A DNA stretch of 52,116 bases from Candidatus Methanofastidiosum methylothiophilum (lineage in GTDB: Archaea > Methanobacteriota_B > Thermococci > Methanofastidiosales > Methanofastidiosaceae), in assembly GCA_001587675.1 (NCBI GenBank), contig LNGD01000001.1, forward strand, positions 1 through 52,116. Direction: 5' to 3'. Positions 3,881 to 43,782 of this stretch are shown here, in pieces. The translations under genes and the position numbers were made by a program. The stretch's first letter is position 1. Every line of letters starts with the position of its first letter. The notes under the pieces were generated by a model that saw only the letters and a list, made by a program, of their open reading frames with translations, did no database searches and was not told the DNA's origin.

Positions 3881-3956
3881 AAACTCACCTTCTTTAGATG
3901 AATGATTAAAGTTTAAATATCTAATCCCGATAGAAAGAAAAAAAATTATTAATAGT

Positions 3957-4268
3957 TTATTCTTGTCTCTTCTCAACGACTATTTTACATTTTACAGCCA
4001 ATGCTGCTATAGCTCCCACTGCTGCAAGCCAAGGCGCTATAAGGGCCCCAACAAGCCCCGCTACGACAGGTATATCCAGTAACGTTCTATCCTTTTCATC
4101 TTTTATTATGATCCTTGTGGCGATACCCTCATCAATTAGCTTTTTTATTTCTTCAACAAGATGATCAGAATCAACAAAAAATTCTTCTCTTTTACCTGTT
4201 GAAGAACCACATTGAGGACAGAATTTTGCCGTATCATCTATCTCAATATTACAATTTTTGCATATCAT
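3957..4268 (-). CDS. Zinc-ribbon plus DUF4342-like protein
   Basis: The N-terminal CxxC...CxxC (CKNCNIEIDDTAKFCPQCG) is a zinc ribbon. The C-terminal RIIIKDEKDRTLLDIPVVAGLVGALIAPWLAAVGAIAAL resembles DUF4342. Confidence 0.55.
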   Translation of the reverse strand: MICKNCNIEIDDTAKFCPQCGSSTGKREEFFVDSDHLVEEIKKLIDEGIATRIIIKDEKDRTLLDIPVVAGLVGALIAPWLAAVGAIAALAVKCKIVVEKRQE

Positions 4269-9580: not shown

Positions 9581-10204
9581 TTACTTAGGTATAAACAAAT
9601 AAATATAGTATACTCCTATAAGAATAAGCAGCACCCCACTGATTTTGTCCAATAGTTTTGAATACTTTTTAATGAATTCTTCAACTTTATTGAGTCCAAA
9701 AATTGAAGCTATAATTATTAATGGTGCCCCTACCATAAATGAGTAAATTAAAAGAGAAATTACTCCTATTACTATATTTTTTTCTAAAGCTACTATTGAA
9801 AGCAATGATATCAATAAAGGTGCTGCTCTAGCTATTGTAATAAGCCCAAATGAAATACCATACGTATATGGTGTAGAACCATAAAATTTCTTGTCTTTTT
9901 TTACAGAGAGTATGTAACTAATTTTTATTAATCTTAATAGTATTAAACCTATAACTATTGACAATACCCCTCCAAATAAAAATCCCAATTTAGTATCGGA
10001 ACTTAATATAAAAGAGATTCCTAAATTAGCCAATAGTCCTAGTGGAACAAAAATAGTTGAAATTCCAATTGAAAAATAAATCGCGTTTAAGAAAGACTTA
10101 TCCTCAATAACTTTTGGAAAAATAGGAAGAATAAAAAAAAGATTAAGTGGACAAAAACCTGCAGTAACCCCTAAGACTATAGAGGATATAATTGTTTCAA
10201 GCAT
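9581..10204 (-). CDS. Polytopic membrane protein (DsbD_2/CcdA-like topology, no redox cysteine pair)
   Basis: 207 aa with about 6 TM segments and an N-terminal GVTAGFCPLNLFF block resembling CcdA/DsbD_2. It starts 2 nt after the ppsA stop. Confidence 0.35.
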   Translation of the reverse strand: MLETIISSIVLGVTAGFCPLNLFFILPIFPKVIEDKSFLNAIYFSIGISTIFVPLGLLANLGISFILSSDTKLGFLFGGVLSIVIGLILLRLIKISYILSVKKDKKFYGSTPYTYGISFGLITIARAAPLLISLLSIVALEKNIVIGVISLLIYSFMVGAPLIIIASIFGLNKVEEFIKKYSKLLDKISGVLLILIGVYYIYLFIPK

Positions 10205-14109: not shown

Positions 14110-15630
14110 TTAATTTCTTTCTTGAATTTTTCTTTTTCTTACGTTTTTAGATATATTTTTTTTTGTTTGATTTATAGTTACTTTTTGTTTAGGGATTTTC
14201 TTTTTTGGAATATCCCTAGAGGGTAAAGTTTGCATTGATGAATAGACTATTATTGTGCCAGATATTGCTATTCCTATATAAAAGAAAATATTGATTGAGT
14301 TTTGAATAAATTTGATTCTTTCTTGTGTCAAGATGTAATTTTTTGCAATAAAAATTAAGGCTTGTGTTGGCCCTTCTCTCAAAACTGAAGTTACTTTCGA
14401 TTTAATGTTAACATCTTTCTGAAAGTTTTGAGAAAATTGTCCTGAAGAAACACCAATATTAATTATATAACTACCTGGTTCATTGTATTTAGCCTTAAAA
14501 ATTAAATCTTTTGTTTCTCCAGATTTTAGCGCACCTTTCCAAGAGCCATCAATTATACTTAATCCAGACCCTTGTAAGATTACCTCTAAATTTTCAGCAT
14601 TTGCTTTGCCTGTGTTAGCTAGAGTAAAAGGAATTTCAATAACATCTCCTTCTTCAGCTTCAAGTTTTTTTGTTACAGTAAGAGTGACATTAGGGCTATA
14701 TTCTGTGACATTAATTGATAGAGGGTGATAAACGTTTATATTTGCACTGTCAGCACCACTATCACTTAGTTCAAAAAGATAGCCATTTATTGATTTTATA
14801 GATCGTTTCTTTAGTATAAACTCTTGGTCTTGGAACTTTATTGTAGTTGAGAGATTTGAAGTGTCTATGACTTTAAAATCAGAGCCACCTATATTGAAAG
14901 ATTCTCCTTTTTTTATAGATATCTCTGATTTAGAAAGAGAATTAATGCCCGATATGGAATATACAGTAAATTTAATTCCGTTATTAGTTTTATTAAGTAC
15001 TTTAACTCTTATGTTACCGAAGGGAAGTATATCATCGGATACACCATAGAGAGTTTCTGAATCAATGTTATTTCTTACATTTACAATAAGTTTATCTTCA
15101 CTTCTATTAACTATCATTGAATAGACTTTATCTGCTTCACCGAAATATAGAGATATTGGACTTTCTATCATTTCTCCTGAATAAATTGGAGTCATTTCTC
15201 TCAAAACGTCTTTAGCCGTATATCCTAATTTAAAGTTAGCCGCTCCTTGGTCAAAATAAATTGTGATTACAAAAATTGACGTAAATTTGATATCCTCAAA
15301 CTCAATTGTCAAGGGGATTTCCCTTACCTTAATTATATTAGGAACTACGACAGTTTTTATTGTTTCATTATTGTATTTATTCTTTTGGAGAATATTAAGC
15401 TCAATAGTGTTTATACATGAACCATCAAATAAGTCTTTATCACATTTTGTTATTTCTACAAGCCTTATAGAATAATTATAAAGGTCGCCTTTTATAGTAT
15501 ATTCCTCATTTTTTTCTTGATAAAGAGGAATCATTATAGTAACTTCCTTATCCACATTTGCCCCATAGACTAGATTTATCGAACAAATAAGTATAAAGCA
15601 CGTTAAAATTGACAAAAAACGCTTGTCCAT
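14110..15630 (-). CDS. Surface protein with CARDB/COG1361-like domain, C-terminal TM and strongly basic tail
   Basis: NVTLTVTKKLEAEEGDVIEIPFTLANTGKANAENLEVIL is a CARDB-like strand pattern. I set the start at ATG 15630 (signal peptide MDKRFLSILTCFILICSINLVYG) rather than the track TTG 15675. Confidence 0.5.
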   Translation of the reverse strand: MDKRFLSILTCFILICSINLVYGANVDKEVTIMIPLYQEKNEEYTIKGDLYNYSIRLVEITKCDKDLFDGSCINTIELNILQKNKYNNETIKTVVVPNIIKVREIPLTIEFEDIKFTSIFVITIYFDQGAANFKLGYTAKDVLREMTPIYSGEMIESPISLYFGEADKVYSMIVNRSEDKLIVNVRNNIDSETLYGVSDDILPFGNIRVKVLNKTNNGIKFTVYSISGINSLSKSEISIKKGESFNIGGSDFKVIDTSNLSTTIKFQDQEFILKKRSIKSINGYLFELSDSGADSANINVYHPLSINVTEYSPNVTLTVTKKLEAEEGDVIEIPFTLANTGKANAENLEVILQGSGLSIIDGSWKGALKSGETKDLIFKAKYNEPGSYIINIGVSSGQFSQNFQKDVNIKSKVTSVLREGPTQALIFIAKNYILTQERIKFIQNSINIFFYIGIAISGTIIVYSSMQTLPSRDIPKKKIPKQKVTINQTKKNISKNVRKRKIQERN

Positions 15631-15681
15631 TGAAGATAATGTTAGAGTAAGGCTTAAAAGACTTATTATCAACACTCTTTC

Positions 15682-16797: not shown

Positions 16798-17840
16798 AGT
16801 GGAATGTATTCAGCGACAAGTCTTTTGTAAATTGGGTATTCTTTTATTATGCCAATTTTTATTTTTCTAGAAAAATTTGTATCTTCGGATATTTCTTCAG
16901 CAATTGCCCAATGTGTGTAAACTTTGTCATCTTCAATTTCGTACATTCTCTTTGAGATATTTATTTTATTTATTAGATATTCAACTATTTCTTCTGTATC
17001 CCCTTCTAATACTCCTTTGACAATTAAACAGTCTTCTATTTCTTCATAGTACTTTTTAGTGTTTCTAGCCCTTATTTCCCATCTTCTTCTCAGTTGGATT
17101 GCGTCTTTTAGAACAGAAGGGCAGAAATGAATAGGAATATTTGAATCCTCAAAAGTTTCTATCAATTCAAGTGAAAGTTCTTTACTACCTTTAATCATGC
17201 TTGTATCGCTATCAAATTCAAATCCTCTTTCACAAAGATTATCCCAATTAGTATCAGTGTACTCAAATTCATTTAAATTAACAAAGGAAAGGTGAGTTTT
17301 TTCAGCCGCTTGTATTATTTTTTTTATCCTTTCAAAATCCCCAGGTATAGCAGGTATCTCAATACCAAAAATAAAGTTCATATCCAGAAAAGCATCGAGC
17401 TTCTGTATTTCATCTGCATTTTTAACATGAAATCTAACTTCATCGACATAACCTTCTAATTTCTTAAGATTTAATACAGATTTATCAGTTGTTCCCGTAT
17501 ACAAATGGATATGCGCACTATTATAATTGTCTTTAATTAACTTGGAATACTCTAAGCATCTGTTTATTCTTAAAAGTGGATCTCCACCGGTCAAACTTAT
17601 TCCTTTTGAACTACATGCTTTTAATTCTTCTAAAATATCTTGGTTCCCCTCTATTTTTCTTTCATTTATATATGAAAAGTCCCTCCCCTTCTTCTCTTCT
17701 GACAATGGGCAGTAATAACAATTAACGTTGCAGACTCCAGTTACAAATAAAACTGATTTTCTACCTTTAATACATAATTTGCACCCTTTAGAAATTTTAC
17801 CTGTATGATATGAGTTAGCATCAGTTTTTTTAATGGACAT
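16794..17840 (-). CDS. Radical SAM protein (COG2108-like, PFL-activase-related)
   Basis: CNVNCYYCP is the CxxxCxxC radical SAM cluster motif, and it is preceded by CKLC. Its end overlaps the convergent gene by 4 nt. Confidence 0.8.
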   Translation of the reverse strand: MSIKKTDANSYHTGKISKGCKLCIKGRKSVLFVTGVCNVNCYYCPLSEEKKGRDFSYINERKIEGNQDILEELKACSSKGISLTGGDPLLRINRCLEYSKLIKDNYNSAHIHLYTGTTDKSVLNLKKLEGYVDEVRFHVKNADEIQKLDAFLDMNFIFGIEIPAIPGDFERIKKIIQAAEKTHLSFVNLNEFEYTDTNWDNLCERGFEFDSDTSMIKGSKELSLELIETFEDSNIPIHFCPSVLKDAIQLRRRWEIRARNTKKYYEEIEDCLIVKGVLEGDTEEIVEYLINKINISKRMYEIEDDKVYTHWAIAEEISEDTNFSRKIKIGIIKEYPIYKRLVAEYIPL

Positions 17841-21518: not shown

Positions 21519-22601
21519 ATGGAAAAAATAAATGTAGGTGTCATTGGAGCCACAGGAATGGTCGGTCAAAATTATATTAGACTATTAGACAATCACCCAT
21601 GGTTTAACGTTACATATGTTGCCGCATCACCTAAGAGTGCAGGTAAATCGTATGAAGAAGCAGTAATGGGCAAATGGCAAATGATTACAGATCCGCCAGA
21701 AAAAGTGAAAAAGCTAATAGTTGGAGATGCTAATAACGTAAGTAATGCAATAGGAAAATGTAATTTAGTTTTCTCTGCTCTTGAAATGGAAAAAGAAAAA
21801 ATAAAAGAGCTCGAAGTTGAATACGCTAAAGCAGGCATACCTGTGTTTTCTAATGCATCTGCAAATAGAAATGTTGATACAATCCCAATGTTAATTCCTG
21901 AAATAAACAGTAATCATATTGAGGTAATATCTCATCAGAAGAAAGTATATGGATTTGATAAAGGTTTCATAGTTGTAAAGCCAAATTGTTCTTTACAAAG
22001 TTATATGACACCAGTATATGCATTAATTAAAGCCGGATACGAAGTCAAAAGAATGATAATCACAACAATGCAAGCAGTATCGGGAGCTGGATACCCTGGT
22101 GTACCATCCCTTGATATGATTGATAATATTGTACCTTTCATTTCGGGAGAAGAAGAAAAATCTGAAGTGGAGCCTCAAAAAATTATGGGTAAAATAGTTA
22201 ATGGTAAAATAGTAAACGATACAAGTATTAAGATATCTGCCCATTGTAACAGGGTTCCGGTAATTGATGGACATACAGCATGTGTAAGTTTAGAATTTGG
22301 ACCAAAAAAACCTTCTTTAGACGAAATTAAAAAAATTTGGAGGGAATTCAAATCCGAACCACAAGAATTAAACTTACCTTTTGCACCAAAGCATCCAATC
22401 ATTTATAGAGAAGAAAACAATAGGCCACAGCCCAAAAAAGATAGAGATAGTGACAAAGCTATGGCAGCTACAATAGGTAGATTAAGAGAATGCAAAGTAT
22501 TTGATATCCGTTTTGTTTGCCTTTCTCATAATACAGTTAGAGGTGCAGCCGGCGGAGGAATATTAAATGCTGAGCTTCTCAAAGCCAAAGGATACCTTTG
22601 A
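21519..22601 (+). CDS. asd: Aspartate-semialdehyde dehydrogenase (archaeal type)
   Basis: GVIGATGMVGQ Rossmann motif, an active-site KPNCS block, and ...GHTACVS.... GGTGAT-ATT-ATG start. Confidence 0.9.
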   Translation: MEKINVGVIGATGMVGQNYIRLLDNHPWFNVTYVAASPKSAGKSYEEAVMGKWQMITDPPEKVKKLIVGDANNVSNAIGKCNLVFSALEMEKEKIKELEVEYAKAGIPVFSNASANRNVDTIPMLIPEINSNHIEVISHQKKVYGFDKGFIVVKPNCSLQSYMTPVYALIKAGYEVKRMIITTMQAVSGAGYPGVPSLDMIDNIVPFISGEEEKSEVEPQKIMGKIVNGKIVNDTSIKISAHCNRVPVIDGHTACVSLEFGPKKPSLDEIKKIWREFKSEPQELNLPFAPKHPIIYREENNRPQPKKDRDSDKAMAATIGRLRECKVFDIRFVCLSHNTVRGAAGGGILNAELLKAKGYL

Positions 22602-22609
22602 GGATTATC

Positions 22610-23155
22610 ATGGGAACAGAAGAAGAAATACTCAAACGCCTTAAATCGATTAAAGGCATTCTTGAAGCTAAAATATTATCCCAAGAGGATATAGAAAAAA
22701 TAAGAGAATTTGAGATCCAAGCTGAAAAAAACAAAGCAGCTGGCGGCATGATGGATTTCATAAATGAGGGGGTATGGGAAGTTTTATCTAAAAAGATAAT
22801 TTTTCTTATTTTTATTGACGAAACATTCTCAGATAGAAAACATGGCCAGAGTTTAACTTTAATGAAGGACCCATCAGGTAATGTTCTCGGTAAGCTTCTT
22901 AGAAAAGACGAATTAACAGAATATAAAAATAGAAACGATGTTTTGTTTATCGGTGAAGATTTTGTTATCTTTTCAAATGTTAAAACTCAGGGTAAGCCTT
23001 ATTTCGTTATTCCTTCTCAAAAAGTTGATGAATTAAAAGATCTAAACGGTATATCTGCAAGTTTATGTGTCCCAACTGATTTGTTTTTTAAGGAAAAATA
23101 TAACATCAAAGGTGAAAATCTAGGAACTGTTATCATTGGAATAGATGAACCCTAA
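22610..23155 (+). CDS. Hypothetical protein (no family recognised)
   Basis: 181 aa from ATG 22610 (GAGGAT SD; the track TTG 22598 overlaps the asd stop). It appears translationally linked to asd. Confidence 0.45.
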   Translation: MGTEEEILKRLKSIKGILEAKILSQEDIEKIREFEIQAEKNKAAGGMMDFINEGVWEVLSKKIIFLIFIDETFSDRKHGQSLTLMKDPSGNVLGKLLRKDELTEYKNRNDVLFIGEDFVIFSNVKTQGKPYFVIPSQKVDELKDLNGISASLCVPTDLFFKEKYNIKGENLGTVIIGIDEP

Positions 23156-23979: not shown

Positions 23980-24072
23980 TTAATGATTTTACTAGGATAA
24001 TTAAGTAATTATTTTTCAGATGAAATATTAAATTTTCAAAAGACTTTTAAAAGATTAACACCATCGAAATAT

Positions 24073-25875
24073 GTGGAATTAACAGATTCAAAAAAGATCG
24101 AGAAGATACGTGAATATCTAAAAAAGGAATATACTTATTTTGATTTAATCAATGTTTTAAAGGAAAAAGGGATTCCCTCTGAAATTCTTGATAGAGAAGA
24201 TGTAAAACTAACAGTATTATCCTCTCAGGAAATTGTTAATCAGATTCAACATGAACGTGATATTCTAAAAAATGAAATAAAAATTTTTCTAGAAGGCCGT
24301 ATAAGAAGATTGGAGCAGAGAATAAATGAACTAAATCAGCCCCCCTTCATGATTGGTATTTACATTAGAAAACTTGAATCTGAGGGGATGCATGAAATAT
24401 TTGATTATGTCGGATACAGAATTATTGCTTACATGATTGATGACATTGATATCAAAAAGGGAGATAAAGTAAGATACAAGTTTATTGAAGCTAAAGAAGG
24501 AGGAAAATTTGTAATACTTGAAAGACACCCTGGGATAGTTGAAACAACTTTAGGAGAGATAATTAAGATTGAAGGTAGATATGCAACAGTTAGATTTGAC
24601 ACTTATCATGAGATGATACTTGATATAGGAGAATTTATTGATTCTAATAATGCTTACCTAAAGGCAGGTGCTTCAGTAACTCTATTTGGCAATTCAAAAG
24701 ATTGGGAAATACTTGATATAAAATCTAATGTTAAGTATGGTGACGACCTTCTACTTGAAAAGAAACCTAGAGTTAAAAGAGAGGACATAGGTGGACTCGA
24801 CGAGGCTATTTTAGAAATTGACCAAGCAGTTGGCTCTGCTTTAAGCTATGATTTTATTAGAGAAAAAGTCTTGAAATTAAAAATAGATAGAACTAAAGGT
24901 ATTATGCTCTATGGTCCACCTGGTTGTGGTAAAACTTTACTTGCAAGATACGCTGCCTCTATATCTTCTAGAAATTTTATTAATGTAGATAAAGAACTCA
25001 GGAGCAAATGGTTTGGAGAAACACAACAGAATATAGAAGAGCTTTTTAGATATGCTGAAGAAAAAGCCCCATCTGTTCTATTTTTTGATGAATTTGATAG
25101 CTTAGTCCCAGAAAGGGAAAGTGGGTCTGAAGCTGCTAGATTAGAAAATCCAATAGTTAATAAATTTTTACAACTTCTAGACGGTCTTGAAGAGATGGGG
25201 GATGTAATTGTAATAATTGCTACTAATAGACCAGATATAATTGATCCAGCTATCTTAAGGCCAGGTAGAATTGATAAGCACATTAGAATAGGTAGACCAG
25301 ATACAAGAGAAGCTGGTGAAAAAATATTAAACATTTACCTAAAGATTGATCAAGTTATTCCGCATCCAAACGAAATTGAGAAATACGGTTCAATAAAAAA
25401 TTTTGTTGAAGAGATGAAAAATACAATAATAGATCAACTCTATAACAAAAATAGGATATGCAATGTTGAAAAACTAGGATTAATTAATGTATCTGTTAAG
25501 GAAATCATATCTGGGGCCATGATTAAAAATATTGTTATTAAAACAAAAAAATATTACATAAATAGGCTCGATAAATATGCAAAACTCATCGATGTAATTA
25601 ATAACATATATCACAGTCAGCTGTATGTTGATAAAACTTGCAAAGTATTGTGTGAACATATAATACATGAATGTTATGAAGTTTCAAAGGAACTAGGACA
25701 AACAGCCGAGAAAGTTATTAACGAGGCCAAAAAAGAATTTAGCACTGATATTGATGAAAAGATTGAAGAGGAGTATTTACTGAAGAAAGTTGAAGCGTAC
25801 ATCGATAGAAACGAAGGAATGCTCATAGAAGATGCAATAAAAGCAATAGATGAAGAATGCGGTGGACAAATTTAG
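24073..25875 (+). CDS. Classical-clade AAA ATPase with proteasomal-ATPase architecture, closer to ARC/Mpa than to PAN
   Basis: Coiled coil (RIRRLEQRINELNQPP), then about 145 residues before DIGGL, which is room for two OB domains. Walker A is GPPGCGKT, Walker B is VLFFDEFD, and the second region of homology is ATNRPDIIDPAILRPGRID. The Mpa-like blocks GSEAARLENPIVNKFL and SGAMIKNIVIKTKK are present. GTG start; there is no in-frame ATG before residue 93. Confidence 0.8.
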   Translation: MELTDSKKIEKIREYLKKEYTYFDLINVLKEKGIPSEILDREDVKLTVLSSQEIVNQIQHERDILKNEIKIFLEGRIRRLEQRINELNQPPFMIGIYIRKLESEGMHEIFDYVGYRIIAYMIDDIDIKKGDKVRYKFIEAKEGGKFVILERHPGIVETTLGEIIKIEGRYATVRFDTYHEMILDIGEFIDSNNAYLKAGASVTLFGNSKDWEILDIKSNVKYGDDLLLEKKPRVKREDIGGLDEAILEIDQAVGSALSYDFIREKVLKLKIDRTKGIMLYGPPGCGKTLLARYAASISSRNFINVDKELRSKWFGETQQNIEELFRYAEEKAPSVLFFDEFDSLVPERESGSEAARLENPIVNKFLQLLDGLEEMGDVIVIIATNRPDIIDPAILRPGRIDKHIRIGRPDTREAGEKILNIYLKIDQVIPHPNEIEKYGSIKNFVEEMKNTIIDQLYNKNRICNVEKLGLINVSVKEIISGAMIKNIVIKTKKYYINRLDKYAKLIDVINNIYHSQLYVDKTCKVLCEHIIHECYEVSKELGQTAEKVINEAKKEFSTDIDEKIEEEYLLKKVEAYIDRNEGMLIEDAIKAIDEECGGQI

Positions 25876-26546
25876 ATATAAATGTCCCCTATTTTACCAA
25901 GATAAGTTCCATCTAAAAGATAACAATCAAATTCTTTTATCTCAAATCTCCCACTTTCAAAATAAGGGCCTGGAATTTCTTCATCCTTATTGACCGGAAT
26001 ACCTTCGATAATAGGATTAAATGAGGGCAATACCACAACATTGTAAGGACTATCCGTTCTTAGAAAACACTTTAGGCGACTAATTTTACCGTTACTGTCT
26101 ATGAATTCAATAACTGGATGTACATGCCCCATTATTAAATTACTATCTTCAATTAAAATATGCCCGTGGGTCAAGATATAGTCTTCTATTTTCAGAGCCC
26201 TCACTACATTATTATTTGTTATATCTTCTATATTTCCATCATGATTTCCTTTGATTATAGTAGTTGGTATATCAAATTCTAAAAACTTTGGTATATTTAA
26301 TTTTTCAAAATAGGAAGTGAAAGGAAGATTATGTTTTATATCCCCTAAAAGGATAAGTTCTTCGACATTCTTTCTTTTAATTATTTTTTTTATATCTTCT
26401 TTAATTTTGTCTCCAATATGAGGTACTTTGATTCCTTTTTGATAATACTCGTATTCCTTTCCTAAATGAAGATCTGCAATAACTAGGTATCTTTTATCAG
26501 ACTCAATTATTATCGCTGGTTTATTGATTACTGGATACAAATCCAT
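25872..26546 (-). CDS. Calcineurin-like metallophosphoesterase (Lhr-associated MPE type)
   Basis: The DLHLG, GDIKHN, GNHD and GHVHP motif series is present. It is divergently paired with the Lhr-like helicase. Confidence 0.8.
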   Translation of the reverse strand: MDLYPVINKPAIIIESDKRYLVIADLHLGKEYEYYQKGIKVPHIGDKIKEDIKKIIKRKNVEELILLGDIKHNLPFTSYFEKLNIPKFLEFDIPTTIIKGNHDGNIEDITNNNVVRALKIEDYILTHGHILIEDSNLIMGHVHPVIEFIDSNGKISRLKCFLRTDSPYNVVVLPSFNPIIEGIPVNKDEEIPGPYFESGRFEIKEFDCYLLDGTYLGKIGDIYI

Positions 26547-26604
26547 AATTTAAAACCATTAACTATAAATTTAAATACTTTGGCTATTTTTTAATAGGGA
26601 TCCT

Positions 26605-29379
26605 ATGACATTCGATCTTCTTGGCAAAGACATCGCAAGAGTTCTAGAAGAATTTAATTTTACTACTCCTACCGATATTCAAATGAATGCTATCCCAGAA
26701 ATTCTGAAAAGAAAAAATGTTCTTCTTATGGCTCCAACTGGATCAGGTAAAACGGAAGCTGCCATACTACCTTTGCTTAAACTTGTTAAGGAAAGCAATT
26801 CCAACGGAATAAAAATTCTTTACATAGCCCCACTACGTGCTTTGAATAGGGATCTTTTACTAAGGCTTGAAAAGATTGGAGAGGCAATGGGGATTAGCAT
26901 AAAGACACGTCATGGCGACACAGTTACGAGCGAGAGAAGAAAGCAAAGTTTGAAACCACCTGATATATTAATCACTACGCCAGAAACTCTCCAGGCGCTT
27001 TTTACTGGGAAAAAGCTTAGAGAGCATCTAAAATCTATCATTGCCGTCGTAGTAGATGAGATTCATGAAATTGCCGAAGATAAAAGAGGCGTACAGTTAA
27101 GTCTTGCTTTAGAAAGACTCGAAAGATTAAAAAATGGCAGAATACAGAGAATAGGATTATCAGCGACTGTAGGTTCCAAAGAAGAAGTTTCAAAATTCTT
27201 AGTTGGTGTTGGAAGAGATGTCCAAATAATAGAATCTAAAACAAAAAAAGAATTTAGCATTGAAGTAGAAACTCCGCAGATTATAGAAGAGGACATAATG
27301 ACGGCAGAAAATCTAAAAATTTCTCCATATGTAGCCTCATCAATTCGAAGAATTAAAAATTTAATTGATGCTCACAACAGCATTCTTTTATTTGTAAATA
27401 CAAGACATATGGCAGAAACTTTGTCTTCAAGATTTAATCTAATGGGGATGAATTTTATAGATGTTCATCATTCGTCTCTCTCTAAAGAAACTAGAATAGA
27501 CGTCGAAACAAGATTTAAGAAAGGAGATATTAAAGGGATTGTTTGCACTTCAAGCATGGAGCTAGGTATTGATGTTGGAGCAGTTGATCTTGTTATACAG
27601 TATGGTAGCCCAAGACAAGTTTCTAAGTTATTGCAAAGGGTAGGCAGAGCCGGACATAAAACTTACTTAGTATCTAAGGGTATAATCCTTACCAGTGAGG
27701 AGGAGATTTGTGAATCAGCCATTATTGCAAATAGTGCTTTAAACTATCAAATTGAAAGGTCAGAAATACCAGAAAAGTCTCTTGATGTTTTAGCCCACCA
27801 AATAATTGGTCTATCTATGGAATCAAACGAAGTTTCTATAGAAGAGGCTTACGTTCTTTTTAAGAAATCCTATCCCTATCGAAATATGACCATTGATGAA
27901 TTTTGGAAGGTATTGTCCTTTTTAGAAAGTATAAAACTCATCTGGATAAACAATCAAACAACGTATAAAAGATCAAAACAGGGTATGTTTTATTATTTTG
28001 AAAACTTATCAATGATCCCAGAAACTAAACAGTATAGGGTTGTTGAAGTTGGAACAGGTACGTCACTTGGTGTTCTTGATGAAAACTTTATTGTTTCTAA
28101 CATTGAAATTGGTGGAAATTTTATAGTTCGAGGGAGAACCTGGAAAGTCTTAAACATTGGGGAAGAAAAGATTGAAGTAACTGAAACTCGATCAGTAGGT
28201 TCAATTCCATCATGGGAAGGAGAACTTATACCTGTCCCTTTATTTATTTCTCGAGAGGTCAATGAAATTTTTTATAATAATTCAAAAATCAATGAATTGC
28301 CTTTGAACTTAGAAACTAAAGAAACTTTGAAAGAATTGATTTCTGAACAATCAAATTATTTTTCCTATTCAAGGGACTCACTAATAATTGAAGATTTAGG
28401 TGAATTTGTCATACTACATGTTTTTAATGGGTCAAAAGCAAACGACACTTTAGGTCGAGTCATAACTTCTCTTTTAGCGCAGAGATTTGGTGAATCTATA
28501 GGTATGAGGACTGACCCATACCATATTATGATTAAATTTCCCCCTGGGATAAAAGATGGAGGATCTGTAGTTAAGAATACCATTCTTGAATTAAATGAAG
28601 ACCACGTCATTCCAATTCTTGACATTATCCTAAAAAACACACCCTTATTTGAATGGAAAATGATTCAGATAGCAAAAAGATTTGGAGTTGTAAAAGCGAA
28701 TTCGGATAAATATTTGATGAAAAACATACTTAAGCTCTATAAGAATACGCCACTATACGAGGAAACTATAAATGAACTTTATCATGACAAATTAGAAATT
28801 GAACCAGTCAAGGAATTCATCAGAGAAATAAAAAATGGTAATTTAAAAACTATTATTTGCAAAAACGATGAACCTTCAACCTTCACCCGATACCTTCTGG
28901 AAGGCTCTTCATTCGAGTTGTTATATCCTAAAAGACCAGATAAAGAAATCATCAAATTCCTTAAAAAAAGGATTATGGAAAAAAGGATTACAATTGGATG
29001 TCTTCATTGCCGTGAGTGGAAAACAACTCTTTCTGTGAACAGTTACGAGGATATTCCAAAATGCCCTCTTTGTGGAGCAAGATATCTAGGCATTTTAAGA
29101 AGAAGAAACGACCTCGAGCTAGTTAAGAAAGGTACAAAAGGAAATATAGATGAAGAAGATAAAAAGACTCTAAAAGAGATCAAAGATTCAGGAGATTTGA
29201 TTCTCTCTTATGGTAAAAAAGCAATAATAGTATTGGCCGGAATTGGTATAGGGCCTAGAACAGCCAAAAGAATACTTGTCAGAGATAGAAAGAATGAAGA
29301 GGACTTATTCAAAGACATTCTAGACGCCGAAAGGGTATATGCAAGGACCAAGATGTTCTGGCAATCAAACAAACAATAA
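26605..29379 (+). CDS. lhr: Lhr-like large DExH-box helicase (archaeal Lhr2 type)
   Basis: Motif I is APTGSGKTEAA, motif II is VVDEIHE, followed by SAT, with QRVGRAGH in motif VI. There is a long DEAD-associated C-terminal region ending in the zinc ribbon CLHC...CPLCG. Confidence 0.9.
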   Translation: MTFDLLGKDIARVLEEFNFTTPTDIQMNAIPEILKRKNVLLMAPTGSGKTEAAILPLLKLVKESNSNGIKILYIAPLRALNRDLLLRLEKIGEAMGISIKTRHGDTVTSERRKQSLKPPDILITTPETLQALFTGKKLREHLKSIIAVVVDEIHEIAEDKRGVQLSLALERLERLKNGRIQRIGLSATVGSKEEVSKFLVGVGRDVQIIESKTKKEFSIEVETPQIIEEDIMTAENLKISPYVASSIRRIKNLIDAHNSILLFVNTRHMAETLSSRFNLMGMNFIDVHHSSLSKETRIDVETRFKKGDIKGIVCTSSMELGIDVGAVDLVIQYGSPRQVSKLLQRVGRAGHKTYLVSKGIILTSEEEICESAIIANSALNYQIERSEIPEKSLDVLAHQIIGLSMESNEVSIEEAYVLFKKSYPYRNMTIDEFWKVLSFLESIKLIWINNQTTYKRSKQGMFYYFENLSMIPETKQYRVVEVGTGTSLGVLDENFIVSNIEIGGNFIVRGRTWKVLNIGEEKIEVTETRSVGSIPSWEGELIPVPLFISREVNEIFYNNSKINELPLNLETKETLKELISEQSNYFSYSRDSLIIEDLGEFVILHVFNGSKANDTLGRVITSLLAQRFGESIGMRTDPYHIMIKFPPGIKDGGSVVKNTILELNEDHVIPILDIILKNTPLFEWKMIQIAKRFGVVKANSDKYLMKNILKLYKNTPLYEETINELYHDKLEIEPVKEFIREIKNGNLKTIICKNDEPSTFTRYLLEGSSFELLYPKRPDKEIIKFLKKRIMEKRITIGCLHCREWKTTLSVNSYEDIPKCPLCGARYLGILRRRNDLELVKKGTKGNIDEEDKKTLKEIKDSGDLILSYGKKAIIVLAGIGIGPRTAKRILVRDRKNEEDLFKDILDAERVYARTKMFWQSNKQ

Positions 29380-31326: not shown

Positions 31327-32883
31327 TTATTTTTTCTTTATATAAGTGTTGTATACGTAGTATCCCCCAACGAGCAATATTACAATTAAACCGATAATTA
31401 CTCCAAGTCTTAAATTATTTATTGACTTTTGGACTGGAACATCTATGTTTTTTTCAAAGAGGTATACATTTAAATCTTGTTTTTCCTTGTTTCCAACTGC
31501 CCTAATTCTGAGATTTAATTGATAAGTTTTGTCTTCGGCATCCGATTTGATATCGGTATTTAATATTACTTCAGCTTTTTGTCCGGGTTCTAAAACTCCA
31601 ATATAATCATTTTTTGAAGTGAAATCAAAAGGCTGCTCCGATCTTTCAATCGCTTCAACAATTATTGATTCTGCTTTGTCCTCTCCTTTGTTTTCTATTG
31701 TTAAATATATCTTTGCATTTCCTCCAGCTCTAGGTGTTTCAGGGACTAGATGATACTCAGTAATCTCCAATTCAGGCTTCCCTTTGATATCTATGTTTAA
31801 TTCGAACTCTTCCTTAAGCAGATTATTTGATGAGTCTCTGTATTCAACTACCATGGGCACTTTGTAGTTCATTTTTTTTGCATTCTTGTTAACATTAATA
31901 AGAAATTCTGCTTCCTTGCTTTGACCTGCTGAAAGTGTACCAATATTATATGAACTCTCATATGATCTAGACAATGAAAATGGCTCTTCCACGTTTAGAG
32001 AAGCTTTAACGTACTTTGCACTCTCTGTTCCTTGATTTGCTAAATTAACTTTTAATTTAACATTCTCATTTCCTGGCCTTATATTATCTGGTAGTGATGA
32101 GAAATTAATTACCATTATTTCTGATCGTCCAGCTACATGAAGCCCAAATTGGATTGTATAAGGTCTAGGGTAAGGTGTTGTTCCGTCATAGAAGTATAAT
32201 ACAAGCGTCATAGGATAGTTACCTGAGGTTATTTTTTCATTTGCCCTTAATTTAAATGACAGAATTTTTTCTTCATTAGCTTCAATATTTCCTATATATA
32301 CTGAATCAGAGGTATTTTCAGGTATAAATGGAATTAATCCCATAGTCGAAGTCATCTGGGAGGAAACTGACGTAGCCTGAGATCCAGTAGGAATTGCTCC
32401 AACGGGAGGAACTGTAAGTGAAGCTTTCACAGTATATGCCCTCATTGATCCTTCATTAGACAAAAGAATTTCAAGATCGAAAGCCTCGCCTGGCTCAACA
32501 TTCAAGGGATTAGTTTTTATTTCTTTAATTACAAACTCATACTGGCTTCTGCCAACTTTGTAACCAACAGGCCCTTTAATTATTACATTAACCCCCACTT
32601 TTGAAACATCAATTAGGTTAATCGTAATATCGTCTACTTTCAATGAATCTCCTTCAGAAATATAAACACCCAATGGCCCAATTGGGGCGGTTCCGTCTAG
32701 CACCATAAACGATGCAATTGTATCCTTGTAGTCAGTAAGCGCCACTGCATAAGGTCCAACAAAAATAAATTCATTATCGTAAAGATTTCCTGAATATATC
32801 ACCGTATCCGTGCTTCCATATGCAAATGGCATAACAACGCTCAAAACAAAAATTCCTATTAAAAATATACTAATTTTCTTCAT
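31327..32883 (-). CDS. COG1361-type surface protein with tandem CARDB-like domains and C-terminal TM anchor
   Basis: Signal peptide and repeated modules (NPLNVEPGEAFDLEILLSNEGSMRAYTVKASL; DNIRPGNENVKLKVNLANQGTESAKYVKASL; ETPRAGGNAKIYLTIENKGEDKAESIIV). C-terminal TM plus KKK. GGAGGAT SD. Confidence 0.6.
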   Translation of the reverse strand: MKKISIFLIGIFVLSVVMPFAYGSTDTVIYSGNLYDNEFIFVGPYAVALTDYKDTIASFMVLDGTAPIGPLGVYISEGDSLKVDDITINLIDVSKVGVNVIIKGPVGYKVGRSQYEFVIKEIKTNPLNVEPGEAFDLEILLSNEGSMRAYTVKASLTVPPVGAIPTGSQATSVSSQMTSTMGLIPFIPENTSDSVYIGNIEANEEKILSFKLRANEKITSGNYPMTLVLYFYDGTTPYPRPYTIQFGLHVAGRSEIMVINFSSLPDNIRPGNENVKLKVNLANQGTESAKYVKASLNVEEPFSLSRSYESSYNIGTLSAGQSKEAEFLINVNKNAKKMNYKVPMVVEYRDSSNNLLKEEFELNIDIKGKPELEITEYHLVPETPRAGGNAKIYLTIENKGEDKAESIIVEAIERSEQPFDFTSKNDYIGVLEPGQKAEVILNTDIKSDAEDKTYQLNLRIRAVGNKEKQDLNVYLFEKNIDVPVQKSINNLRLGVIIGLIVILLVGGYYVYNTYIKKK

Positions 32884-33949
32884 TATAATCCTCCATTTTT
32901 TTCTTAATTAGATTTTTTGTATCTTGAAATACTTTTTCTTGAATAACTAAAAATGATGGGAGGAATATTAATGTTACTCCCATGCAACTAAATACGCCAA
33001 TGAAAAGCATTTTTCCCATAGTATCTAACATAGATAGCGAGCCTGCCAACATAGCAATAAATCCAAATCCTGCTACAATAGATGAAACTACTATTGGTTC
33101 AATAACACCTTCTAAAGTTCTAACAATTTTTTCTACAATAATTGGGGATCTTTCCATATTGAACCTATTTATAGTTTGGATTGCAAAATCAATCCCTATC
33201 CCTGCCATCATTGAGACTACTCCAACTAGCTCAGAACTTAATGAAATACCGATAAATCCAGAGATACCCATCATCCATACTATACCTACCCCAACACATA
33301 TCAGTGGGATTATACCATATCTTATCGATCTAAATGTTAGGATAACACATAACAAGACCCCAATCATCCCAAAAGTAGAGATTTTTGACATTTCTGGCAA
33401 AATAATATCTGTTAATTCTTTGCCCATAGCTATATTCCCCCCGGGCTGAACTGTCAATATTGTTCTTGACATTGTCTCCTTAACATCGTCATAGACTACC
33501 AAGGGGTCTACCCCCTTCATAACATTTAGACGGATTAACATATATCCTAAGCTATCTGAAATTTCTAATTTATTCATTAGCTGTTCTTTTGGCAGATATA
33601 TTTCATCTAATTCAAGATTAAATGATGAGCTTTCTATACCATAAATGCTTTTAAGTTCTTGATTTAGGAGATAAGCTTCCTTTAGAACATCAGGGGAAAA
33701 TACATTATCAGAATTTATAACTATAATAATTGAGTTATATCTTTCAAACTTATCTTCCATTTTCATAAATACTTTAATTTCTTCAATAGTTTTAGGTAAC
33801 TGATCTGAATCTTCTTCTTGTTTAACTTCTATTAGAGACATTCCTATTCCTAGTATTATTGTGATTATTATTGAAACAACTAAAAGTCTCTTAGGATGTT
33901 TACCATGTGCCTCTGCAAATTTTTTGATTACTTTGTCTATATTTCTCAA
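32870..33949 (-). CDS. MMPL/RND-superfamily exporter, half-size protein (second half)
   Basis: One N-terminal TM segment, a soluble loop, then a 5-TM bundle with FRSIRYGIIPLICVGVGIVWMMG...GIGIDFAIQTINRF. TTG start 1 nt after the preceding stop, with a GGAGTGGT SD-like element. Confidence 0.75.
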   Translation of the reverse strand: MRNIDKVIKKFAEAHGKHPKRLLVVSIIITIILGIGMSLIEVKQEEDSDQLPKTIEEIKVFMKMEDKFERYNSIIIVINSDNVFSPDVLKEAYLLNQELKSIYGIESSSFNLELDEIYLPKEQLMNKLEISDSLGYMLIRLNVMKGVDPLVVYDDVKETMSRTILTVQPGGNIAMGKELTDIILPEMSKISTFGMIGVLLCVILTFRSIRYGIIPLICVGVGIVWMMGISGFIGISLSSELVGVVSMMAGIGIDFAIQTINRFNMERSPIIVEKIVRTLEGVIEPIVVSSIVAGFGFIAMLAGSLSMLDTMGKMLFIGVFSCMGVTLIFLPSFLVIQEKVFQDTKNLIKKKMEDYNEEN

Positions 33950-33950
33950 A

Positions 33951-35033
33951 TTACCACTCCCTCAGAGCCATTATTGAAGGTAAAAAGACCAGTGCCCCGA
34001 TCAAACAAGTTACTATCCCTAACGATAAAGCTGTTCCAAGATGTACCATCATTGGCATTGATGAAAGAGCTAAGGCCAAAAATCCAGCAATTGTAGTTGA
34101 GCTAGAGCCTATCGTTCCCACACCGACACCTGCAACCATAGCTACAATTCTTTCTTCATTTGTTTTTCCTTTTTTTGCTTCTTCGTTATATCGGGCCATC
34201 ATGAATATTCCATATTCAGCACCCAATCCGATAACTATAGCACCAACACTAGCAGTAACAAGACTAATTGGTATCCCAACATATGATAAAATTCCGGCAG
34301 TCCAAAAGACCCCACATAATAAAGGAATGATTACAAAAAATGATTTCCATCTTAGTATAAGAGTTAATAAAATGAAAACTATTATTGCAGATATGGCCAT
34401 AGTCTTTAACGAATCTTCTCTTAGTACTCTAATAATTGTTTTATTCAAAACAGGAGAGCCTGTAATGGTGTAATTTAATCCATAAAGCTGCGTTTTTTCA
34501 GTTTCTTCTTCAACTATATCAATTGCAGCTTGTATCTCTTCTTCCCCTCTTACTCCGCTCATTCTTATTATAACAAGAGCGGAGGTGTAGTCTTTTGATA
34601 TAAGACCTGGCATAGTTTTTGCAACTTCTCTCAATGTGGCCTCATCTGAAGGTATACTCTTGAAAATAGAATAATAAATACTGCCTGGGCCAACTACATC
34701 TAGAATTTCTGGTCTGGCTTTTAATCTCTTTTCAAGTTCGTATATGCTGTCTAAACTTTGTTTATTCCGAATATCCTTTACAATATCTAAATCAGTTTCC
34801 AATAATATTATTATTCCCTCTTCCTGACCAAATTCACTATCTATTAAATTTTGTGTCTTTACTACATCAAAGTTTTGAGGAAGTTCTTTCATAAAGTTGG
34901 ATTCAAATCGTAGATTTAATGCCCCAAAAGATAAAAATAATGTTAGAAGTAACATTAATGTAACTATAATTTTACTATACCTATATTCAAAAAGTGCAAG
35001 TTTTCCGAATAATGTATCTCTGAGTTCTATCAT
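33951..35033 (-). CDS. MMPL/RND-superfamily exporter, half-size protein (first half)
   Basis: Same architecture as its partner: LRWKSFFVIIPLLCGVFWTAGILSYVG...GLGAEYGIFMMARYNEE. GAGGTGGA SD, and the ATG overlaps the padR stop (ATGA). Confidence 0.75.
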   Translation of the reverse strand: MIELRDTLFGKLALFEYRYSKIIVTLMLLLTLFLSFGALNLRFESNFMKELPQNFDVVKTQNLIDSEFGQEEGIIILLETDLDIVKDIRNKQSLDSIYELEKRLKARPEILDVVGPGSIYYSIFKSIPSDEATLREVAKTMPGLISKDYTSALVIIRMSGVRGEEEIQAAIDIVEEETEKTQLYGLNYTITGSPVLNKTIIRVLREDSLKTMAISAIIVFILLTLILRWKSFFVIIPLLCGVFWTAGILSYVGIPISLVTASVGAIVIGLGAEYGIFMMARYNEEAKKGKTNEERIVAMVAGVGVGTIGSSSTTIAGFLALALSSMPMMVHLGTALSLGIVTCLIGALVFLPSIMALREW

Positions 35034-35377
35034 TGTTCCACCTCAAAGACTTCCTTTAGAAAATCTTCATAATAAAGTAAATCTCTTTTTAGATAATTCA
35101 TTTTTTCTTTAAGCTTTACCATTCCTTTCGGTGTGATTTTATAATATTTCTTCCCTCGGGTTCCCTTATTCGTTTCCTCAATTAGGCCTTCTGTGGCCAT
35201 GAACAATATTTTTGGATAGATCAGTGCAGGAGAAAGTTTCCAGTTACCACTAGATCTCCTCTCTATCTCTTTTATTATATCATAGCCACAAAGTTCCTTT
35301 TTGCTGAATAACCAAAGGCCAAAAGTATCAAATATATGGAAGTAATGAATACTGTTATGAATTTGTTTAAACGTCAT
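35030..35377 (-). CDS. padR: PadR-family transcriptional regulator
   Basis: CGYDIIKEIERRSSGNWKLSPALIYPKILFMATEGLIEE...KKYYKITPKG is the PadR winged-helix pattern. It is the first gene of the exporter/surface operon. Confidence 0.7.
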   Translation of the reverse strand: MTFKQIHNSIHYFHIFDTFGLWLFSKKELCGYDIIKEIERRSSGNWKLSPALIYPKILFMATEGLIEETNKGTRGKKYYKITPKGMVKLKEKMNYLKRDLLYYEDFLKEVFEVEQ

Positions 35378-42749: not shown

Positions 42750-43667
42750 TTATCCTTTGATTAGGTATATAACGAATCCAAATACAAGAATTATTGAGAT
42801 TATAGATATAAAAATCAAAAAATAAAACATTAAAGGTGGAGAATTTTTCATCTCAACTTCATTTTTTTCCGTATCAAGATTGGATATATTTGATTCAGGT
42901 TCAACTATCTTTTCAATAATGTTAATCTTTATATTCTTGTATATTAAACCCTCATTTCCATTTATATCTTGAAATTTCACAACTATGATTGGGTTTAAGT
43001 TTATGTTAGAGAAATTCTTATCCAATGACACTAAAAGTACATTAGATGAATCTATTCCTGGATTAATATAAGGAATATTTATTTTTTCATCTGAAACAAT
43101 ATCTCCTTTTAATTCTACAGTGACATTTCTTATTTGAATATCTCCAATATTTTTTACAATAAATGGTATTTCTAGCTTCTCTCCACTTTCAATATTGTAT
43201 TCATTTTTATCAAGTTCAATAGTTGCTTCAGCTCTTTTTTCTTTTAGAGAAATGTTTACCGTCTTTTCTAGATAAAACGGCCTACATCCTCCTCTACACA
43301 TACCCTTTCCACATTTCAAAATTATTTTAAAACTGACTTGATCAATAGGTATTTCTTTATCAAAGGATAAGATAAAAGAGTCTTTTACACTTCTTCCAGG
43401 TTCAACTATTGAAAATTGAAAAGGATTGTTCTGATAATTTATTTCAGAGTGTATATAATTTTTGTATTTGTTGATAAATTCATCGTCTATAGATATTTTC
43501 CCATCCCACAGCCTGTCATTAGAGTTATTGATTATTTCAAATGTTATTCTAATCTCTTCTCCTTTTATTGATTCAGTTGGATAAGTTAAATTCATATCTA
43601 CATATTCTGCAACTACAGGTTGTATCAAAATAATTAGTAAAAAAAATACAATGGCTATCTTCTTCAT
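42750..43667 (-). CDS. COG1361/CARDB-like surface protein with C-x-x-G-C-R-P motif and C-terminal TM (paralog of 15682-16797)
   Basis: Signal peptide MKKIAIVFFLLIILIQPVVA, then GEEIRITFEIINNSNDRLWD, GKGMCRGGCRPFY and GEKLEIPFIVKNIGDIQIRNVTVEL. ATG 43667 (CGTGAT-TTT-ATG) is preferred to the track TTG 43718. Confidence 0.5.
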   Translation of the reverse strand: MKKIAIVFFLLIILIQPVVAEYVDMNLTYPTESIKGEEIRITFEIINNSNDRLWDGKISIDDEFINKYKNYIHSEINYQNNPFQFSIVEPGRSVKDSFILSFDKEIPIDQVSFKIILKCGKGMCRGGCRPFYLEKTVNISLKEKRAEATIELDKNEYNIESGEKLEIPFIVKNIGDIQIRNVTVELKGDIVSDEKINIPYINPGIDSSNVLLVSLDKNFSNINLNPIIVVKFQDINGNEGLIYKNIKINIIEKIVEPESNISNLDTEKNEVEMKNSPPLMFYFLIFISIISIILVFGFVIYLIKG

Positions 43668-43782
43668 AAAATCACGCTTAACAGGTATTAAAAACTTTGG
43701 ATTGATATCTAAACTCAAAGAACAAATCGATAATAAACTTTTTAAAGATAACTCTTTTCATCATCTTAAATGGTGAGTTTTT

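Follow-up and report, generated by a model that had tools for sequence, protein, structure and literature searches.

The archaeon Candidatus Methanofastidiosum methylothiophilum (class Methanofastidiosa) carries, on the forward strand of the DNA stretch analysed here (52,116 nucleotides; hereafter the window), a gene for a 600-aa AAA ATPase which, judged by its sequence, is closer to the bacterial proteasomal ATPase ARC, including Mpa of Mycobacterium tuberculosis, than to the archaeal proteasome-activating nucleotidase PAN. In the searchable literature, including a 2025 review and a 2008 comparative-genomics paper, ARC/Mpa and pupylation are treated as bacterial, and archaea are described as users of PAN and Cdc48. 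An ARC/Mpa-type ATPase in an archaeon is what the original prediction had claimed. The closer relationship to ARC/Mpa than to PAN is borne out by family profiles, BLASTP, the lid and a tree of the ATPase core, but the protein is not a bona fide Mpa/ARC, as it scores at less than half of the family cutoff and has an orphan N-domain, no beta-grasp domain, no docking tail and no linked Pup or proteasome gene. 'ARC-like' is thus the defensible label for a protein that lacks several of the marks of ARC membership. Taken as a whole, the evidence is probably best explained by a functional ATP-driven unfoldase, belonging to a deeply diverged, Methanofastidiosum-restricted branch of ARC/Mpa that is without canonical docking to the 20S proteasome.

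Relationship of the ATPase core and lid to ARC/Mpa

The gene is real, functional and under strong purifying selection. Its open reading frame (ORF), 24073-25875 (+), stands as originally called, with a GTG start codon; orthologues start at the same position, several of them likewise with GTG. In the databases the identical protein carries the name 'AAA family ATPase', and a homologue search found orthologues only in Methanofastidiosum (26 clusters at 79-100% identity; apart from the identical protein, 25 clusters at 79-86%). Among these orthologues synonymous sites are saturated (proportion of synonymous differences, pS, 0.67-0.83), the proportion of nonsynonymous differences (pN) is 0.07-0.12, and the ratio of nonsynonymous to synonymous substitution rates (dN/dS) is ~0.04-0.05 where computable. 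Constraint is seen in every segment of the protein, with a pN of 0.03 in the AAA core and of 0.095 in residues 92-231. Beyond the genus, the full-length homologue search is dominated by Cdc48, whose two domains double the score, and true relatives are not visible there.

Such relatives appeared in a scan of one genome per prokaryotic species, with an alignment of the 600-aa ATPase and Mpa as query. One Methanofastidiosum locus came first, followed by two loci from archaeal metagenome-assembled genomes (MAGs; L005 and L007, query residues 59-499), which belong to a family that we call the Thermoplasmata type, and then by about 60 bacterial ARCs (residues ~76-499) from Actinomycetota, Poribacteria, Nitrospirota, Myxococcota and Methylomirabilales; archaeal Cdc48-like genes covered residues 232-430 only. 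A tree was built from 95 AAA domains over 195 columns, leaving out the N-domain and the lid insertion and adding PAN, FtsH and Cdc48 sequences from a metagenome scan. By neighbour joining (NJ, 200 bootstraps), the Methanofastidiosum proteins, the Thermoplasmata type and the bacterial ARCs group together at 92%. Support for this clade was 82-92% across eight variants, which differed in distance correction, in removal of the Walker-A Cys column, in the use of stricter columns, or in removal of the FtsH or the Thermoplasmata-type sequences, while the replicates grouped the protein with PAN in 0% and with Cdc48 in no more than 10% of cases. The AAA-domain phylogeny proposed as a check on the original prediction came out in its favour, with an ARC grouping of 82-92% and none with PAN, and the core of the 600-aa ATPase is placed in the ARC clade.

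Comparisons of the whole protein point the same way. The best NCBIfam model, in the proposed profile check of pup_AAA against PAN/Rpt, is pup_AAA (TIGR03689, the Mpa/ARC equivalog), with 211.9 bits over residues 75-497; the PAN models, whose matches do not begin before residue 152 or 167, score 182 and 178 bits, and CDC48 reaches 179 bits. The PAN family cutoff (500 bits; TIGR01242 / PRK03992) is not reached. BLASTP against Mpa gives one colinear alignment (query 80-496 to Mpa 87-531, 31% identity, E 1e-45) that begins where the coiled coil ends, takes in both beta-rich units and the core, and reaches the lid. Against PAN, only residues 151-412, the second beta unit and the core, are aligned (37% identity over 262 residues). 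The reference sequences used match deposited chains, Mpa being 7px9_A over 609/609 residues and residues 155-430 of Methanocaldococcus jannaschii PAN being 3h4m_A. With 39% identity and 165 bits, the match of the AAA core to PAN is the lowest among the classical families compared, and by every measure taken on these sequences PAN is the most distant of them.

The lid carries the most specific signal. Within NCBIfam, residues 427-600 match pup_AAA only (24.6 bits, E 9e-6, residues 430-497). In profile-profile alignment with hhalign, the segment after RPGRID (residues 403-500) matches the lids of 61 bacterial ARCs at 98.0% (E 2e-13, 39% identity, 92 columns) and those of the Thermoplasmata type at 97.7%, against 0.6% for PAN lids. 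In the deeper of two AlphaFold2 (AF2) models the lid insertion consists of a helix (441-457) and a beta-hairpin (462-474) placed before the SGAMIKNIVIKTKK helix, with a predicted local distance difference test score (pLDDT) of 71-85, and the block SGAMIKNIVIKTKK aligns with SGAMIQNVVDRAKK of Mpa. A hybrid lid profile matched 966 proteins; among the 120 listed, the named ones are 'proteasome ATPase' or 'proteasome-associated ATPase', except for one 'Vesicle-fusing ATPase' and one 'hypothetical protein'. That profile included Mpa, so it is not independent and is supporting only; its matches are fragments of at most 180 aa, the search apparently selecting on length relative to the query. The lid of the 600-aa ATPase is of the ARC type and its insertion is ARC-specific. 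Of the Mpa-type AAA blocks named in the original prediction, the insertion and SGAMIKNIVIKTKK thus hold, but GSEAARLENPIVNKFL is not specific to Mpa: it fits VAT/Cdc48-D2 (TERIVNQLL) at least as well as it fits Mpa (ETTVVPQLL). Two of the four arguments originally listed, the xPP linker and the GSEAARLENP block, are common to PAN or Cdc48.

Structure prediction agrees with this assignment. An AF2 run with a 13-sequence alignment gave an unusable model (pLDDT 45.5); with 56 sequences, including Thermoplasmata-type relatives, the AAA domain and the lid were resolved and the N-domain was not. When the better model was searched against the PDB with Foldseek, Mpa chains took ranks 1-6 and most of the top 30 (5kwa_A, E 6e-19), with query-normalised TM-scores of 0.39-0.40 as compared with 0.29-0.36 for Rpt, PAN and p97 chains. 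This is consistent with an ARC-type fold for the modelled region and is no independent proof of one.

Several points weigh against an ARC affiliation. The pup_AAA score of the whole protein is only 42% of the curated cutoff of 504.75 bits, and the family cutoff is not reached. The AAA core alone (residues 232-426) scores higher with CDC48 (178 bits) and PAN (166 bits) than with pup_AAA (160 bits), and it is as close to ARC as it is to Cdc48 in identity (~45-46%). Family hidden Markov models (HMMs) on the tree columns rank Cdc48-D2 first (214 bits), ahead of ARC (~195 bits), Cdc48-D1 (187 bits), the Thermoplasmata type (175 bits) and PAN (165 bits). The tree is a distance-based NJ tree only, and the branching order inside the ARC clade is not settled by it; no specific sister relationship links the 600-aa ATPase to the Thermoplasmata type (5-13% bootstrap). 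Nor is the Foldseek ranking independent evidence, since the alignment behind the AF2 model included ARC-like sequences, and its margin is modest.

These core scores are the main argument for a different origin, in which a Cdc48/VAT D2-like AAA domain shed its partner domain, acquired a new N-terminus and gave rise to the protein, whose ARC-like features would be convergent or artefacts of fast evolution. Such an origin appears quite unlikely. In addition to the Cdc48 models leading on the core, the best PDB sequence matches of the 600-aa ATPase are VAT and p97, GSEAARLENPIVNKFL resembles VAT D2, one source names an orthologue 'VCP-like ATPase', and the pore loop is similar (SKW-G in Cdc48/VAT, TIGR01243). 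Yet on genuine ARC proteins, too, the Cdc48-D2 profile scores nearly as high as the profiles of sister groups do (Mpa 250 bits; P0243, of the Thermoplasmata type, 236 bits), and for this reason we read its high score here as that of a slow-evolving profile attracting any query and not as a sign of descent. Ranking family HMMs on the core was accordingly set aside as a stand-in for phylogeny, as it is not decisive. At most a tenth of the NJ replicates place the protein with Cdc48, and the architecture differs. Cdc48/VAT proteins have two AAA domains, a double-psi-barrel N-domain and, in many archaea, an HbYX tail, and have neither a coiled coil nor the ARC lid insertion; the 600-aa ATPase has one PF00004 match (residues 277-407, E 2.5e-36, its single Pfam domain), one Walker A and no PF02359 or PF02933 (CDC48_N) match, and its coiled-coil/PP junction and ARC-type lid insertion are not Cdc48 features.

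Domain layout, N-terminal region and C-terminus

The gene and the parts of its product are as follows, with residue numbers referring to the 600-aa protein.

24073..25875 (+): complete coding sequence with stop codon, single-domain AAA+ ATPase of the classical clade (ORF call)
24073..24195 (+): N-terminal helical segment before the coiled coil, residues 1-41 (AF2 helices 4-17, 25-31 and 36-39, pLDDT 57-82)
24196..24345 (+): coiled-coil helix 42-87 and LNQPP linker, residues 42-91 (single AF2 helix 42-87; hhalign; phmmer to Archaeoglobus fulgidus PAN)
24346..24528 (+): beta-rich unit 1, residues 92-152, candidate first OB-like domain, motif IDIKKGDKVRY (weak alignments)
24529..24765 (+): beta-rich unit 2, residues 153-231, candidate second OB-like domain, motif YLKAGASVTL, with the linker to the ATPase (weak alignments)
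24766..25302 (+): AAA alpha/beta nucleotide-binding subdomain, residues 232-410 (profile scores, NJ tree, AF2 pLDDT ~70-85)
24913..24936 (+): Walker A GPPGCGKT, residues 281-288 (motif scan)
25006..25017 (+): pore loop 1 KWFG, residues 312-315 (motif scan; aligned with KFVG of Mpa and KFIG of PAN)
25075..25092 (+): Walker B VLFFDE, residues 335-340 (motif scan; invariant across orthologues)
25258..25275 (+): second region of homology with the arginine fingers, RPGRID, residues 396-401 (motif scan; invariant)
25303..25569 (+): first part of the lid (small subdomain), residues 411-499, with the ARC/Mpa-type insertion before the SGAMIKNIVIKTKK helix (profiles, hhalign, AF2)
25570..25806 (+): family-specific all-helical lid insertion, residues 500-578 (conservation; AF2 helices, pLDDT 32-55)
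25807..25872 (+): probable last lid helix EGMLIEDAIKAIDEEC, residues 579-600, followed by 4-6 residues (GGQI) (hhalign)

All catalytic and pore motifs of the ATPase are intact, sensor 1 reading ATNR. The Cys variant of the Walker A motif is common to Mpa and the Thermoplasmata-type family. Pore loop 1 of such ATPases is the aromatic-hydrophobic-Gly loop that grips the substrate. At the other end of the layout, the N-terminal segment 1-41 (...YFDLINVLKEKGIPSEIL..., three helices) has no counterpart in alignments with Mpa, Thermoplasmata-type proteins or PAN.

The N-terminal region is an orphan in sequence. Its dimensions agree with those originally described, with QPP at residues 89-91 and DIGGL at 238-242. 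The spacing from PP to IGG is 147 residues, close to the medians of ARC (138, 61 bacterial proteins) and the Thermoplasmata type (140), as against 80 in PAN, and leaves room for two OB domains. Taken alone, residues 1-236 match no proteasomal-ATPase family model; a profile of them, searched against 1.84 billion representative proteins, has matches only within the genus, and in the PDB no chain of Mpa, ARC or PAN comes up with E values up to 10. Sequence searches of this kind rule out an ordinary ARC or PAN N-domain and do not themselves identify the fold. In profile-profile controls, the N-domains of PAN, ARC and the Thermoplasmata type recognise each other at ~97% (E ~1e-10). The N-domain of the 600-aa ATPase reaches 47% with PAN, through the coiled coil, the PP and the first strand only, and 10% with the Thermoplasmata type. 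Scored with an HMM of bacterial ARC N-domains, L005 and L007 reach 47-52 bits and the Methanofastidiosum family only 9-15 bits.

Two further observations tell against an ARC-type N-terminal half: the profile-profile match to the ARC N-domain is only 23% (P 9e-4), although colinear over 117 columns spanning both units, and residues 86-228 have a pLDDT of 25-39 in both AF2 runs. The block-by-block alignment of two OB domains with Mpa that had been put forward therefore finds no statistical support. Each beta unit on its own is non-significant against the ARC N-domain and the others (P 0.006-0.05), the weak alignments sitting at the expected OB positions. Unit 1 aligns with OB1 of Mpa in a Smith-Waterman shuffle test (z 3.8, P ~0.004) and at the OB1 position of the ARC N-domain in hhalign (P 0.014). 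Unit 2 aligns with the PAN OB domain (Smith-Waterman z 3.6) and with the end of the Thermoplasmata-type OB2 (hhalign P 0.006), and the NCBIfam PAN models reach into it when anchored in the AAA domain (182 bits from residue 152, versus 158 for the AAA part alone). Single-sequence Smith-Waterman tests have low power on these units, given that the PAN OB domain against Mpa OB2 is itself non-significant. A double OB domain in the 600-aa ATPase is plausible on this evidence, and unproven.

The coiled coil ending in xPP is present as claimed, but it is not specific to Mpa. Such a coiled coil and linker are common to PAN, Rpt and ARC and do not discriminate between them; A. fulgidus PAN has LRSPPLLVG, and hhalign of the coiled-coil segment favours the PAN N-domain (78%, P 1.8e-5) over that of ARC (P 0.002). 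This match bears on another explanation of the protein, as a highly diverged PAN orthologue serving as the normal proteasome-activating nucleotidase. The archaeal host, the alignment of the second beta unit with the PAN OB domain and the lack of any other PAN gene in the window would fit that role, and PAN (TIGR01242, PRK03992; M. jannaschii PAN, PDB 3H4M) shares with the protein a coiled coil, a PP linker, an OB-type unit and a classical AAA domain. PAN, however, has one OB domain only, a plain lid without insertion and an HbYX tail. The 600-aa ATPase differs from it in spacing (147 versus 80), in lid and in tail, has its core furthest from PAN, scores 182 bits against a cutoff of 500, and never joins PAN in the bootstraps, which makes a PAN identity highly improbable.

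Beyond the SGAMI helix lie 120 residues, all predicted by AF2 to be helical. Residues 500-578 have no Pfam or NCBIfam match, and residues 500-600 give no alignment to the C-terminal beta-grasp region of Mpa/ARC by BLASTP or hhalign, so that no beta-grasp domain is recognised. The last 22 residues (EGMLIEDAIKAIDEECGGQI) align with the terminal lid helix of the Thermoplasmata type (GLSVEDFAMAVEEECKEH; hhalign 47%, P 2e-4, 42% identity), and the terminal helix falls at the same position in ARC. Since these residues align as the terminal lid helix, residues ~500-578 are best read as a family-specific helical insertion within the lid. A pairing by MAFFT of AIDEECGGQI with the Mpa tail AIDTESNLGQYL was rejected as spurious, as hhalign puts that helix as the last lid helix. 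Residues 500-600 also hold a conserved His/Cys set, in a part of the AF2 model where confidence is low for geometry: across orthologues H514, C523 and C534 are invariant and C527 nearly so in the insertion, and C596 is invariant in the terminal helix. This pattern of conservation suggests a metal or redox site.

Neither a GQYL nor an HbYX tail is present in the protein or its orthologues, in agreement with the original prediction. The 600-aa ATPase ends ...EECGGQI and its orthologues end IQR, GQR, GQS, GQI, QKR, IQL or IQS, none of them with a penultimate Tyr or Phe, while the 61 bacterial ARCs end G[QH]YL or GGT[YF]L. Some bacterial ARC-clade proteins also lack GQYL (loci L006, L008, L054, L031, L051 and L077, from Bowdeniella, with two copies, Dietzia, Nanopelagicales, a Syntrophobacter MAG and an Actinomycetes MAG), and tail-less ARC variants are hence not unique to archaea.

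Compared with Mpa/ARC (TIGR03689; M. tuberculosis Mpa, PDB 5KWA, 7PX9) as a whole, the 600-aa ATPase shares a single AAA domain of the classical type that follows a coiled coil, an xPP and ~140 beta-rich residues, the Walker A motif GPPGCGKT, the helix-plus-hairpin insertion and SGAMI helix of the lid, a colinear alignment of ~420 residues, the clade of the AAA core and the best structural match. It differs in its barely recognisable N-domain and its extra 41-residue N-terminal helical segment, in lacking the two actinobacterial core insertions (Mpa ~309-325, and SEGT), in having a 75-residue helical lid insertion that bears Cys and His in place of the beta-grasp domain and GQYL tail, in its archaeal host, and in the absence of linked pup, dop, pafA and prcAB genes from the 52-kb window and the orthologous loci.

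The gene and its neighbours

The gene lies 93 bp downstream of a CbiQ gene and is preceded by one putative control element.

24045..24052 (+): putative TATA-like box TTTTAAAA, ~21-28 nt 5' of the GTG (sequence inspection, weak, the region being AT-rich)

The box suggests that the gene may have its own promoter, with a short or absent leader. The 5' neighbours are homoserine dehydrogenase, FAA-hydrolase family, aspartate-semialdehyde dehydrogenase, a 185-aa ORF and CbiQ, and the 3' neighbours are a convergent metallophosphoesterase gene and then an Lhr helicase gene. The order CbiQ, AAA, phosphoesterase, Lhr is kept in other Methanofastidiosum contigs. The metallophosphoesterase (-) and the Lhr-type helicase (+, 924 aa) form a conserved pair at 25872-29379, found in the same arrangement in other contigs of the genus, and the 3' ends of the phosphoesterase and AAA genes overlap by 4 nt. 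The 185-aa ORF (22598-23155, +) stands two genes upstream of the ATPase gene, with CbiQ between, and its position is kept in the orthologous loci L001 and L002 (181 aa there). It has no Pfam match, as is also true of the ORFs at 14110-15675 (-, 521 aa), 42750-43718 (-, 322 aa) and 9581-10204 (-, 207 aa).

Further downstream, between an S-layer-like gene and an OMPdecase-RraA fusion gene, the window has an extra block at 31327-35377 with a CARDB/DUF11 surface protein, two MMPL-family half-transporters and a 115-aa ORF. The block is missing from the otherwise syntenic L001 (compared at 17236-17297) and L002, which points to a strain-specific insertion or deletion. Near the other end of the window, a PAC2-family gene (PF09754, E 5.5e-42) is present on the reverse strand, as had been reported; its limits are 3134-3976 and not 3134-3880, the ORF being extendable to a TTG at 3976. 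It is 20 kb from the ATPase gene and not linked to it.

Archaeal relatives, partner genes and possible function

The premise that ARC is purely bacterial, on which the original prediction rested, needs revision, as a clearer ARC homologue is present in at least 120 clusters from archaeal MAGs of the Thermoplasmata type. The protein at L007 (2893-4497) has 515 aa and the same layout as the 600-aa ATPase; used as a query, it retrieved at least 120 clusters (P0243-P0362; 68-99% identity, 513-559 aa), many with PF16450. NCBI labels these proteins 'AAA family ATPase [Thermoplasmata archaeon / Methanobacteriota archaeon]' and JGI, by automatic annotation, 'proteasome-associated ATPase'. They score 349.6 bits with pup_AAA versus 268 bits with PAN. 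Members of this family (P0243-P0362; L005, L007, L164, L165) resemble the 600-aa ATPase in coming from archaeal MAGs, in overall layout, in the Walker A motif GPPGCGKT, in the ARC-type lid, in tree clade, in the terminal lid helix motif (EEC) and in having neither a GQYL tail nor a beta-grasp domain. Identity is only ~32%, however, and unlike the 600-aa ATPase they have a recognisable ARC N-domain, a tail reading FRTGADPMVG and a position directly upstream of a Pup-ligase gene and a Pup-like ORF. The tail occurs in 111 of 115 members; it matches neither GQYL nor HbYX and might be a docking motif of another kind.

On 826-kb and 400-kb contigs the Thermoplasmata-type ATPase gene is directly followed by a PF03136 Pup_ligase gene (PafA 250 bits, Dop 247 bits), and this in turn by an overlapping ORF of 56-58 aa that ends ...LDLDSARYKA[QR]KGQGGDRR[TS] (loci at L165 10001-13018 and L164 10001-13053, with L166 the same as L165). 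This end resembles that of Pup, ...FVRAYVQKGGQ, with four extra residues. The gene order is the same as in the actinobacterial mpa-dop-pup arrangement. No 20S genes occur within 10 kb on either side of the operon, and no description of the arrangement was found in the searchable literature, the coverage of which is incomplete.

Around the 600-aa ATPase gene no such partners are seen. The 52-kb window, in which Pfam scans covered the 30 largest ORFs, shows no 20S, PAN, Cdc48, Pup-ligase (PafA/Dop) or Pup-like gene, in line with the original statement that it holds no PafA/Dop or 20S gene and extending it to PAN. When an archaeal Pup-ligase and Pup-like ORFs were used as tblastn queries, neither the window nor four orthologous loci gave a match, and no pup, dop/pafA or prcAB is linked to the ATPase gene in the window or in the orthologous loci. 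The same literature, again with incomplete coverage, holds nothing relevant on Methanofastidiosa and the proteasome, or on archaeal ARC, Mpa or Pup.

Under the explanation that we prefer, of a diverged ARC-clade unfoldase, six subunits would assemble into a ring, by analogy with the solved structures of Mpa and PAN. The N-terminal helices would pair as coiled coils over a beta-rich collar and may recognise a substrate or an adaptor. ATP hydrolysis, through Walker A and B, sensor 1 and the arginine fingers, would move the KWFG pore loops so that a polypeptide is pulled through the central channel. Docking to the 20S proteasome in the canonical tail-in-pocket way is most likely absent, because there is no beta-grasp domain, no GQYL or HbYX tail and no Pup ligase, Pup or 20S gene nearby. 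The protein would then probably act as a stand-alone unfoldase or disassembly machine, or its helical insertion may bind a partner. A last point on the opposing side is that independence from the proteasome is here argued from absence within 52 kb, and that tail-less docking is possible. Corynebacterium, which has ARC and pupylation and no 20S proteasome, offers a precedent for a proteasome-free ARC; its ARC is reported to disassemble pupylated ferritin.

The protein could instead be the ATPase arm of a full Pup-like pathway, with the genes for ligase, modifier and 20S proteasome elsewhere in the genome, its coiled coils capturing tagged substrate and its ring feeding the proteasome. Membership of the ARC clade is in keeping with this, the Thermoplasmata-type linkage of ATPase, Pup_ligase and 56-58 aa ORF shows such systems in archaea, a PAC2 proteasome-assembly gene lies in the window, and the inspected region is only 52 kb. 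We nevertheless regard it as unlikely: neither the window nor the four orthologous loci hold a ligase or Pup-like ORF, the gene order is conserved without one, the docking tail and beta-grasp domain are lacking, and the putative tag-binding N-region is unlike the ARC N-domain in the HMM comparison (9-15 bits, against 47-52 bits for the Thermoplasmata type). More speculatively, and with a similarly small chance of being correct, the ATPase might recognise and unfold substrates within an undescribed pathway of archaeal small-protein tagging that is related to pupylation. Its unusual N-terminus, with the extra helical segment and a diverged coiled coil and beta collar, would read a lineage-specific tag, and the Cys/His lid insertion would serve as the docking or regulatory element instead of the beta-grasp domain and tail. 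If true, and taken with the Thermoplasmata-type operon, this would extend pupylation-type tagging beyond bacteria.

As a probable member of a deeply diverged ARC branch, the 600-aa ATPase represents an ARC-clade unfoldase kept under strong selection in a methanogen lineage without any known proteasome-docking element, and it raises the question of what role is left to an ARC ring that has no tail, tag ligase or linked proteasome. The archaeal family that combines ARC, Pup ligase and a Pup-like protein would, if confirmed, bear on the origin of the Pup system and on the direction in which proteasome-related genes have moved between archaea and bacteria.

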